Positions 35,295 through 41,135 of a DNA stretch of 64,000 nucleotides are shown here, piece by piece (position 1 is the stretch's first letter; the number at the start of each line of letters is the position of its first letter). The notes under the pieces were generated by a model. That model did not search any database. It saw only the letters and a list, made by a program, of their open reading frames with translations, and had not been told where the DNA came from. The position numbers and the translations under genes are program-made. The stretch comes from an uncultured Verrucomicrobiota bacterium (lineage in GTDB: Bacteria > Auribacterota > JABMQX01): NCBI GenBank assembly GCA_964482435.1, contig CAYZXL010000006.1, positions 64,661 through 128,660 on the forward strand, written 5' to 3'.

Positions 35295-38200
35295 ATGAAA
35301 AAACTTGCGATGAGTTTTGTTCTTTGCTGCCTTTGCGTGACGTCTTCGGAAGGCATCGTTATCAATGAGATTATGTACCACCCAACCGGCGACAACGAGG
35401 CGGACCTCGAGTGGTTGGAGCTGTATAACGATGACGTTGTTCCCTTAGACGTCGGCGGGTGGTCTTTCTCGAAAGGAATCAGCTACCAATTTTCGGAAAA
35501 CATCGTTCTGGCAGGGAAATCCTACGTCGTGGTCTGTGCAAACAAGATTGCCCTGATGGGGATATATCCCATAACCAAGGATAAGCTCTACGGCCCCTTC
35601 GAGGGACGGCTTGACAGCGGAGGCGAGCAGATTGCTCTCGTGGACAAGCTGGGAGCGGTCATGGCACACGTCCACTATAGGGACAGGGACCCCTGGCCGG
35701 CTGGAGCGGACGGGACAGGGTTCTCTCTGGCTCTCATCAATCCCGACCTGCCGATGGACGAAAGCGAAAGCTGGGCGGTCAGCGCCAAGCCCCTTGGAAG
35801 CCCTGGCCAGCCGAACGGCTTCGAGGAGGAGACGACCATCACCGACACTCCCCTTGTACAAGTGGGGGAATTGTGGAAGTACTTCAAGGGCACGGAACCT
35901 CCTTCGGCAGACCCTCTCGGGTGGACTGAACCCGATTTCGATGACTCTACCGAGAAGTGGCTTTCCGGTCCGACAGGCATAGGATACGGCGACGGCGACG
36001 ACGCCACAGAGGTTACGGATATGCAGAACGCCTATCGCTCCGTTTTCTGTCGTAAAAAGTTTGAGGTTACGAACGTTTCCTCCATAGACAGCGTCGTGTT
36101 CAAAATTGCTTACGACGATGGATTCATAGCCTTTCTCAATGGTCCCGAACAGGAAATTGGCCGAAAGAACATGGGGAATACAGGGGACGTCTTCACTTAC
36201 AACATGGAGGCCACGACGAGCGTCGGAGACCTTCCGGAGTCGGCAGAATTCAACGTTCCGAAATCCTATCTGCGAGAGGGGACGAACGTCCTGGCGGTTC
36301 AGATTCACAATTACGGCATAGGCAGCAGCGACCTTTCGATGATTCCATCTCTCTCCAGCCGAAAGGTCAAAACCAGCGGCGGCGTAACGCCCATGCCCGT
36401 GGTCATCAACGAGTTTCTGGCCAACTCCAGCGGCGAGACATTTGTGGAGCTGTTCAATAATAGCAACGCGGACATGGACATCGGGCTGACTTATCTCAGC
36501 GACGACCCGCTGAACTTGATGAAGTACCAGATTCCGGCGGGCACCGTCATTAAGGCCTGGAAGCCCGCGTCTTTCAGCGAGACGGCCATGGGCTTTCCGC
36601 TGCCCCAGGGAGATGCGGCGATTTATCTCACCACGCCCGACGCAGCGCGGATTATTGACGCACAGGCTTACGCAACCGAGCGACTGGACATGAGCCGCGG
36701 TCGGTATCCCGACGGGGAGGGGCGCTGGTACACCATGCACACACCAACCCCTGGCGAGCCGAATGAGATTTCGGTCAACACCTCCATCGTCATCAACGAA
36801 CTGATGTTCCATCCGTATGAGAACGACGATACCCTCGAGTACATCGAGCTGTACAACCGGGGAACCGAGGCAGTGGACATGTCCGGCTGGAGTTTCGATG
36901 AGGGAGTGGATTTCGTTTTCCCCATCGAGACGACGCTCGATGCAGGGGATTATCTCGTCGTCGCGAAGAATCAGGAGACTATTGCCCAGAAGTACGCCGT
37001 ATCCAACGTCATCGGAAATTTCGGCGGAAACCTCGAGAACGAAGGCGAGAAAGTCGAACTTGTTGACGCCATAGGGAACGTTGTGGACGAGGTTCGCTAT
37101 TCCGGGGGAGGACGATGGCCTATCTGGGCCGCGGGATGGGGATCGAGCCTTGAGCTGATAGACCCGCGGCAGGACAACAGCTCGCCTTCCGCATGGGCCG
37201 CCAGCGACGAGAGAAGCAGGGCAGTCTGGACTCGCATCGAGTACAGCGGCCAGTTCAGCGGAGGTGAGTCGGAATTTCACTTCTTCCTGATGCATCGGGG
37301 GGAGTGCTTGATTGACGACATCAGCATGAAGCGCGGTGGCCAGGAATACATCCCAAACGGTTCTTTTGAATCGGGCACATCGGGCTGGAAGATCGAGGGC
37401 AACCACATCCAATCGTCCATCTACACTCAGGAGGCGCGCAGCGGTGCGAGGTGCCTGAAGATCGTAGCCACTGGCCGGGGAGACACCGGCGCCAACAGGA
37501 TCGAATGCGACACCACCACTGCCCTGAGCTCAGGCCAGACCTACACGATTTCGTTCTGGGTCAAGTGGCAGAGAGGAGTTGATTTGATTTACACGCGGAC
37601 CCATAGCCAGGGAGCGCCGCGGGCAAGTCGGATTCCGATGCCCTCTCCTCGCGGGACGCCCGGCAAGCCAAACACCGTTTACCTGTCGAATCTCGGCCCG
37701 GTTATCTGGGATGTGACCCAGAAGCCGATTGTCCCGAAATCCGCCGACTCCGTCAGGATTACGGCAAAAATCAGCGATTCGGACGGAGTTACGTCGGTCA
37801 CCTTGTATTACAGGGGAGACAACGACGCAAACTACAACAGCGTCCAGATGTTCGACGACGGATCGCATAACGATAGACGGGCAGGGGATGGACTCTACGC
37901 CGGGGAAATCCCACCCCGAGGCAGCATTGATTTGATGAGGTTCTACATCGTCCCCCAGGACGCGCTCTCTGCAACTCAGCGGTTTCCCGCCATGGACGGA
38001 AGGTTTTGCCTGTACCAGATTGAGAACACCCCTCCCTCGACGAAGCTCCCCATTTATCGCATTTTGTTGTCGCGCGAGGCCGACCAGCAAATGCGCAGCC
38101 AGGTTCGGCTGAGCAACGAGCTTGCCGACTGCACGTTCGTCTTGAACAACACCCAGATTTACTATAACTGCGGCGTTCGCACCCGAGGCAGCGGCTGGAC

Positions 38201-41135: not shown

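Follow-up and report, generated by a model that had tools for sequence, protein, structure and literature searches.

The window analysed here is a stretch of 64,000 nucleotides of contig CAYZXL010000006.1 (assembly GCA_964482435.1) from an uncultured Verrucomicrobiota bacterium, and all positions refer to this stretch at its full length. Our subject is gene G3, which occupies positions 35295-41135 of the plus strand, begins with ATG and, according to the open reading frame (ORF) list and its translation, codes for 1946 residues plus a stop codon. A preliminary description of the locus, made from the sequence without database searches, had given the position, strand, start codon and length of this ORF, all of which were borne out. 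It had also proposed that the product combines three lamin-tail domains (LTDs), a CotH-like domain, TSP3-type Ca-binding repeats and a C-terminal module shared with neighbouring proteins. Pfam matches, together with an alignment of the C-termini, uphold each of these modules. To them we now add a predicted signal peptide, a jelly-roll domain, a CBM_4_9-like domain and a choice-of-anchor X motif, none of which the description had included. A protein 100% identical to G3 (P0001) is present in the NCBI-derived collection, where it lies on a contig of 155 kb; in the scanned genome contigs the best match is 67% identical, and the closest relatives come from metagenome-assembled genomes (MAGs) labelled Verrucomicrobiota or simply ‘bacterium’. 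G3 is a sound annotation rather than a new kind of system, being a member of a known, functionally undefined family. The same DNA also contains an antisense ORF of 655 codons (35445-37412, minus strand), most likely a by-product of a coding sequence with 58% G+C.

The defining part of G3 is a CotH atypical-kinase domain (residues 961-1262; 38175-39080, plus strand). It matches PF08757 with an E-value of 5.8e-23 and 82.3 bits (cut-off 23.8), covering profile positions 1-286 of 322, and the alignment of the family extends further, over residues 915-1300. A single-sequence phmmer search with the CotH region of G3 against the PDB returned no match. A profile built from 14 family members (alignment A2) matches the Bacillus cereus CotH structure 5JD9 over residues 2-355 of 359, with an E-value of 2.3e-26. 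The CotH assignment, which had been offered subject to a profile search, is confirmed by these two matches.

The alignment to 5JD9 also identifies the putative active site. D1159, N1168 and D1197 of G3 (38769-38771, 38796-38798 and 38883-38885, plus strand) fall on D224, N229 and D247 of the B. cereus protein. The spacing of 23 between D224 and D247 is the same as that between D228 and D251 of Bacillus subtilis CotH, for which the substitutions D228Q and D251A were reported to give a catalytically inactive protein (PMC7821199). Our check covered the catalytic Asp, the metal-binding Asp and the catalytic-loop Asn, and each of the three positions is kept in 13-14 of the 14 aligned sequences, whose identity to G3 ranges from 28% to 70%. 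Judging from this alignment, the CotH domain of G3 has all three residues intact, and its catalytic core appears to be under selection.

The CotH domain is preceded by a long N-terminal part composed of several binding-type modules. The protein starts with what looks like a Sec signal peptide (residues 1-20, MKKLAMSFVLCCLCVTSSEG; 35295-35354, plus strand), read from the sequence by eye; an equivalent hydrophobic N-terminus, followed by the start of the first LTD (IVINEIMY), is found in the orthologues P0002-P0008. Over the whole protein, the LTD model PF00932 scores 150 bits (cut-off 34.3) in three stretches, at residues 17-128, 368-430 and 495-603. LTD1 (residues 17-128; 35343-35678, plus strand; E-value 2e-15, 57.6 bits as an isolated segment) and LTD3 (residues 495-603; 36777-37103, plus strand; E-value 2.7e-21, 76.4 bits) both exceed the threshold in isolation. 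LTD2 reaches from residue 368 to about residue 488 (36396-36758, plus strand), the Pfam match itself covering residues 368-430 (E-value 1.8e-7); in isolation it scores 31.9 bits, slightly below the 34.3 cut-off, and it is counted within the three-stretch match of the whole protein.

The region of about 190 residues between LTD1 and LTD2 is predicted to fold as a jelly roll similar to galactose-binding domains (residues 175-362; 35817-36380, plus strand). Its AlphaFold2 model has a predicted local distance difference test score (pLDDT) of 93.4 and a predicted template modelling score of 0.89, and a Foldseek comparison of the model with the PDB gave 262 matches at E-values of 1e-3 or lower. The best of these (E-value about 1e-6) are the N-terminal sugar-binding domains of glycoside hydrolase family 2 beta-glucuronidases and beta-galactosidases. 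Weaker support comes from a profile match to the rhamnosidase 3W5M (E-value 2e-4) and from Pfam BetaGal_ABD2 (E-value 0.04). After LTD3 follows a CBM_4_9-like domain (residues 684-765; 37344-37589, plus strand; PF02018, E-value 1e-13, cut-off 25.9), which scores 47-52 bits (52.2 at best) and covers profile positions 2-84 of 136. An Ig-like segment then leads to the CotH domain. It contains a choice-of-anchor X motif (residues 851-875; 37845-37919, plus strand; NCBIfam NF041940, 27.8 bits, cut-off 25) and, close to it, a weak Big_7 match.

C-terminal to the CotH domain, the polypeptide is dominated by an array of TSP3-type Ca-binding repeats (residues 1385-1871; 39447-40907, plus strand), identified by TSP3_bac (PF18884) with an E-value of 2.3e-29 and 101.3 bits against a cut-off of 25. 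It consists of three repeats of 23 residues followed, from position 39654, by eight super-repeats of 52-54 residues, each made of an ‘A’ motif (DTDDDGMxDxWEVxNGLDP) and a ‘B’ motif (GDPDGDGLTNxxEYxxGTNP). Asp makes up 20.6% of the array and 7.8% of the rest of G3. The preliminary description had counted about 16 repeats over roughly 1.5 kb; the span holds (1.46 kb), and the count rises to 19 motifs of the DxDxDGxxD type, 18 of them found by a regular expression and one, at residue 1798, by eye, in agreement with a second expression. The protein ends with an Fn3-like beta-sandwich (residues 1873-1946; 40911-41132, plus strand), delimited by alignment A3 and an AlphaFold2 model, to which we refer by its terminal signature as the FYRV module.

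To place this architecture in a wider context, we searched with the whole protein at an E-value threshold of 1e-10 and obtained at least 3135 homologues; the details of architecture given below come from the best 120. Most homologues align to some 70% of G3, with identities of 31-45%. They share a common core of about 1380 residues with the order LTD, jelly roll, LTD, LTD, CBM_4_9, Ig, CotH, Ig. The jelly roll is present in 112 of the 120 and is missing from short paralogues. In named sources (Planctomycetota, Verrucomicrobiia/Limisphaerales, Sumerlaeia and unclassified MAGs) the homologues are called ‘lamin tail domain-containing protein’. What varies among the members of this family of more than 3000 is the C-terminus, where TSP3 repeats with the Fn3-like cap, TIG, PA14, dockerin, cadherin and beta-helix modules are swapped. 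Thus, P0022-P0120 share the core with G3 at 31-45% identity and differ from it in carrying TIG, PA14, cadherin, dockerin or beta-helix modules in place of its long TSP3 array; dockerin (PF00404), for instance, is found in the distant homologues P0101 and P0106.

That LTD-CotH fusions are known, as had been noted, is correct: Cthe_0239 of Clostridium thermocellum, for example, has the order LTD, LTD, Fn3, CotH (PMC6083626). The accompanying view that their combination with TSP3 repeats and the C-terminal module is unusual was overstated, since about 20 of the best 120 homologues combine TSP3 with the FYRV module and at least seven further proteins (P0002-P0008) have long arrays. Arrays of 6-10 super-repeats are confined to this closest clade, so far as the homologues compared here indicate, and the long TSP3 stalk is in these terms a clade-level variant of an experimentally uncharacterised family.

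Three groups of known proteins invite comparison. The CotH protein of Bacillus (PF08757; 5JD9/5JDA) is homologous to G3 over the full length of the catalytic domain, with equivalents of D228 and D251 conserved, and G3, loosely like the gene in the cotB/cotH/cotG cluster, adjoins genes for large structural surface proteins. However, Bacillus CotH is a single domain of about 360 residues that acts in the mother-cell cytoplasm on the Ser/Lys-rich repeats of CotB and CotG, whereas G3 is an exported, multi-domain protein of 1946 residues from a non-sporulating lineage, and its neighbours G1 and G2 (see below) have no Ser/Lys-rich repeat region. The second group comprises LTD-CotH and CotH-dockerin proteins of clostridial cellulosomes (Cthe_0239; CseP/Cthe_0044; Ccel_1101 of R. 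cellulolyticum), in which, as in G3, an extracellular CotH domain is fused to LTD and Fn3-type modules. These dockerin- and LTD-bearing proteins are documented extracellular components of the cellulosome, tied to carbohydrate-binding machinery (PMC6083626; PMC12484212; PMC12774918). They attach to scaffoldin through dockerin, which G3 lacks; G3 in turn goes beyond them in its three LTDs, jelly roll, CBM_4_9 domain and long TSP3 stalk. The third group, CglD and MtsD of Myxococcus and the Amuc_1099 family of Akkermansia, shares with G3 tandem DxDxDGxxDxxE Ca-binding motifs. The corresponding NCBIfam models match G3 locally within residues 1384-1559, in the repeat region alone. CglD (NF033765) scores 72.9 against a cut-off of 400 and MtsD (NF047639) 45.8 against 800. 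The model for the Amuc_1099 family of pilus-like system proteins (NF042425) scores 78.6, above its cut-off of 50, but this total is made up of five matches that all use one short section of the model; the best stretch covers positions 96-151 of 321 and lies inside the TSP3 array. On this comparison, G3 belongs to none of the three families.

Upstream of G3 lie two further giant genes, G1 (23828-28729, minus strand) and G2 (29458-34383, minus strand), the latter divergent from G3. The start of G2 is probably the ATG at 34383 rather than the GTG at 34443 of the mechanical ORF, because the signal-peptide-like N-terminus MKTTRHFSIGLILSMF... begins there. The two proteins are paralogous (43% identity over 1469 residues, 57% in the C-terminal 650 residues) and both contain K319L-like PKD repeats; Pfam places three of them in G2, which ends in the Fn3-like module. 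G1 has in addition an N-terminal legume-lectin-like domain and an F5/8-type-C match. On the other side, 39 nt from the G3 stop codon, lies a convergent gene (41175-41711, minus strand) for an XRE-family helix-turn-helix (HTH) protein of 178 residues, with a Pfam HTH_3 match (E-value 1.5e-10) and a C-terminal extension of about 110 residues.

We compared this gene order with that in 11 other distinct contexts, a small sample. Two forms of the LTD-CotH-TSP3 gene have to be distinguished: the long form, represented by G3 and P0002-P0008, and a short paralogue (P0010-P0015) that lacks the jelly roll and has only 2-6 Ca motifs. Both coexist in one MAG, GCA_964516325.1 (loci L031 and L032); loci L025 and L026 were noted in the same connection. 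Orthologues of the XRE-HTH gene (178-179 residues, 75-82% identity) stand directly downstream of the long form at loci L002, L003, L024 and L032, where it is the sole gene syntenic with that form; it is better conserved than G3 itself (75-82% versus about 67%). Locus L033 is an exception, with a long form and no XRE-HTH gene downstream.

A giant of the G2 family stands head-to-head with an LTD-CotH gene at three places, namely in the window, at L031 (a G2 orthologue, 69% identical over 1015 residues) and at L025 (41-47%). The partner is the long form in the window and the short paralogue at the other two loci. Four other long-form loci have no such giant, and upstream of the LTD-CotH gene at the remaining loci we find ligA, small ORFs or unrelated giants. 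Since the head-to-head pairing recurs, synteny makes it plausible that G2-type and G3-type proteins are functionally linked. The preliminary description had suggested co-regulation from a palindrome in the shared spacer; that basis fails, and what speaks for the link is the pairing in two other lineages.

The spacer between G2 and G3, 911 bp long if G2 starts at ATG 34383, does contain an element of nested inverted repeats, about 260 nt in length (34917-35177, without strand), which ends some 120 nt before the start codon of G3. The two outer arms (34926-34947 and 35146-35167), each of 22 nt, agree at 21 of their 22 positions, and the window has no further copy of them. The inner arms of the element are 46 nt long, and its predicted RNA fold has an energy of -161 kcal/mol (z = -6.2). 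The element has no match in Rfam and is missing from the homologous spacers at L025 and L031. The GC-rich inner motif (GGCGTCTCGCCCTCG...GGGCAGGATGCC...) has a further copy at 62926-62993, directly upstream of ORF 59042-62917, and occurs three times at L002 (8028-8059, 19277-19317 and 20930-20984). Given these copies, the inner motif is a dispersed intergenic repeat of this lineage, possibly of the repetitive extragenic palindromic or miniature inverted-repeat transposable element type, and does not behave as an operator of G2 and G3. Thus, the palindrome is real, and the co-regulation read into it finds no support in its distribution. A scan of the spacer for sigma-70 promoters gave none, nor did the interval between G3 and the HTH gene yield a terminator.

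Several further features of the surroundings were recorded. The short paralogues at L025 and L031 share a downstream gene for a protein of 658 or 676 residues (9242-11218 and 8557-10587, respectively; 61% identity) with no Pfam match, which is missing from the window. The window is rich in large secreted proteins of glycan-binding type and includes three right-handed beta-helix (PF13229) proteins (15182-17032, 52849-54168 and 59042-62917, all on the minus strand). Two of the three carry the Fn3-like module, and they are 37-45% identical to the giant that adjoins a short LTD-CotH paralogue at L030.

Based on these data, we consider it probable, if by no means assured, that an uncultured bacterium of the Planctomycetes-Verrucomicrobia-Chlamydiae type exports G3 through the Sec pathway, as a multi-domain protein located outside the cell or on its surface, in which a binding head, a CotH-type kinase domain, a Ca-binding stalk and an Fn3-like end are joined. 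From the N- to the C-terminus it is made up of the binding head (three Ig-like LTDs, the galactose-binding-like jelly roll and CBM_4_9), an Ig-like spacer, CotH, a second spacer, the TSP3 stalk of about 490 residues and the Fn3-like module. The head may attach the protein to a surface of glycan or glycoprotein, belonging either to the cell itself (its envelope or matrix) or to a polysaccharide that serves as substrate, and the CotH domain would carry out nucleotide-dependent phosphotransfer onto a component of that surface or matrix. When loaded with Ca2+, the TSP3 array might act as a stiff spacer, and the Fn3-like end may serve in protein-protein attachment rather than in sorting. The head-to-head giant of the G2 family and the XRE-HTH neighbour are candidate functional and regulatory partners.

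Several points weigh against this interpretation. ATP is scarce outside the cytoplasm, so that kinase activity of an extracellular domain is not self-evident, and B. subtilis CotH acts in the cytoplasm of the mother cell. The signal peptide of G3 was judged by eye alone, and an anchoring signal was not found in the protein, which leaves ‘cell-surface’ and ‘released’ indistinguishable. The CBM_4_9 match spans just about 60% of the model, and a ligand is not inferable for either this module or the jelly roll. Finally, reviews describe extracellular CotH modules as having no defined function (PMC12484212; PMC12774918).

The best surviving alternative is that G3 is a non-catalytic adhesin or structural scaffold, in which the CotH fold is merely a binding surface and tethering is achieved by the CBM-like, LTD and TSP3 modules. 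The presence of several binding-type modules and the doubtful supply of extracellular ATP are in keeping with it, as is the occurrence of TSP3 arrays in adhesion and cohesion proteins, to two of which (CglD and MtsD) G3 shows the partial NCBIfam likeness below cut-off described above. In addition, a structural role is one of the two suggested for cellulosomal CotH (PMC12484212), and for the CotH invasins of fungi (Mucorales), which are ligands of host GRP78 (PMC12211043), such a use of the fold as a binding surface has been proposed. However, the catalytic Asp, the Asn and the metal-binding Asp are kept in nearly all family members across 28-70% identity, which would be unexpected were catalysis dispensable. 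We therefore regard a purely adhesive or structural role as possible but clearly the less probable of the two.

Much more doubtful is a more specific proposal, by analogy with Bacillus, that the LTD-CotH protein and the head-to-head giant of the G2 family might form an extracytoplasmic kinase-substrate or scaffold module that, by phosphorylation, patterns the surface or matrix of non-sporulating bacteria of this type, with the XRE-HTH protein as its regulator. Such a module would be a functional analogue of the coat-patterning cotB/cotH/cotG cluster, but outside the cytoplasm. We checked G1 and G2 for possible substrate regions. Their combined Ser and Thr content reaches at most 35-48% in 40-residue windows, and these lie within Ig/PKD-type sequence; neither protein has a Ser/Lys-rich low-complexity region or a convincing Ser/Thr-rich one. 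It is because G1 and G2 lack Ser/Lys-rich repeats like those of CotB and CotG that we rate this proposal so low.

The C-terminal module raises a separate question. The preliminary description had recognised an FYRV-type domain at the end of G3, and this domain is indeed present and common to G1, G2 and ORF 52849-54168. It is about 74 residues long, with the signature [IV]x[IL]xW...G[RK]xYx[VI]...DLxxW...[FW]xD...[RK]FY[RK][VI] (alignment A3). The proteins end in ...GKAFYKVEVYY (G3), ...YYRVMAP (G1), ...FYRVMGQ (G2) and ...FYRILENP (ORF 52849-54168). Besides the copy in G3, terminal copies in the window lie at 23828-24040, 29458-29670 and 52849-53090, and an internal copy occupies residues 1107-1173 of the 1291 encoded by ORF 59042-62917. 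The module matches no Pfam or NCBIfam model at E-value thresholds of 1 or 10. Its AlphaFold2 model (pLDDT 84.5) is a six-strand sandwich, and the closest structures are bacterial Fn3 modules, namely those of PelI (3B8Y; template modelling score 0.70-0.74), CtXyl5A (5G56; 0.65) and 3MPC (0.66), all at E-values that are not significant.

This module had been called a sorting domain. By analogy with the C-terminal domain of the type IX secretion system (T9SS), it could be the sorting or anchoring signal of a dedicated export or attachment system, which would explain why four secreted proteins of the window end with it. In favour of this, the four ORFs in 64 kb have the module 2-5 residues from the stop codon, it is at the extreme C-terminus in 39 of the 53 carriers among the 120 best homologues of G3, and of 143 proteins with several copies, 51 have the last one at the C-terminus. 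On the other hand, its profile has 21,208 matches at E-values of 1e-3 or lower among 1.84 billion representative proteins, and the best of them hold up to 40 tandem copies, mostly internal. The module is also internal in the remaining 14 of the 53 carriers, where about 150 residues follow in proteins annotated with PA14, as well as in ORF 59042-62917 of the window. Moreover, its fold is that of an ordinary Fn3-like sandwich, it finds no counterpart among curated models of sorting domains, and the C-terminus of G3 shows neither a hydrophobic helix nor a basic tail. A C-terminal sorting domain of the T9SS-CTD-like (C-terminal domain) or PEP-CTERM-like type was likewise rejected, as the module is not restricted to a single copy in a strictly terminal location. 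A dedicated sorting function, or a residual role of the terminal copies in sorting or attachment, is in our estimate very improbable. We conclude that the FYRV module, as modelled, is a divergent building block of the Fn3-like kind that frequently caps the end of a protein, rather than a signal dedicated to sorting. With more than 21,000 protein clusters matched and no model in Pfam or NCBIfam, the module makes a candidate new domain family.

The TSP3 array had been described as near-periodic DNA and a likely site of length polymorphism. The periodicity is real, although weak: a lag of 156 gives a DNA identity of 0.55, compared with 0.31 +/- 0.02 for the other lags in frame, and outside the array the gene does not exceed 0.30. 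For the protein, a lag of 52 gives an identity of 0.48, compared with 0.09. By codon position, the identity at lag 156 is 0.63 for positions 1-2 and 0.40 for position 3. When units are compared one by one with those of the orthologues P0002-P0008 (64-83% identical overall), G3 units are most alike their positional counterparts, with no sign of concerted evolution among them. Periodicity concentrated in codon positions 1-2, together with positional orthology, points to purifying selection on a structural array. The comparison of copy number across related genomes, which had been suggested, gave 6-10 units and only rare whole-unit changes between species: P0002, which is 83% identical, matches G3 in having 8 units, and the other orthologues have 6, 9 or 10, as judged by unit comparison and the count of DxWE.

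It is very unlikely that we are dealing with a contingency locus in rapid evolution, or with an artefact of assembly, in which the length of the array varies within populations. The differing unit numbers among orthologues and the strict 156-bp register would fit, but the units are only 56-70% identical in DNA (mean 62%) with a longest common exact word of 17 nt, and the array goes unreported by Tandem Repeats Finder. In addition, third codon positions are close to random from unit to unit (0.40 versus a background of 0.31), and units pair by position across species. A hypervariable tandem-repeat locus would call for near-identical DNA units, and the predicted length polymorphism was therefore not supported. 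Judging from these comparisons, the array is old and stable, its length shifting through rare gain or loss of whole units over long times, and, because its units have diverged at the DNA level, it is neither a substrate for slippage nor a realistic risk of assembly collapse.

Returning to the interpretation of G3 as an exported CotH protein with a binding head and a Ca-binding stalk, its wider context is the abundance, in Planctomycetota and Verrucomicrobiota, of exported proteins that resemble CotH kinases; such proteins occur also in cellulosomes and are without an assigned function. G3 is of value as a clear and complete representative of the very large family labelled ‘lamin tail domain-containing protein’. 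In view of its intact catalytic residues, two modules of sugar-binding type, Ca-binding stalk and two conserved neighbours, it is a reasonable candidate for asking whether bacteria phosphorylate components of their surface or matrix outside the cytoplasm.

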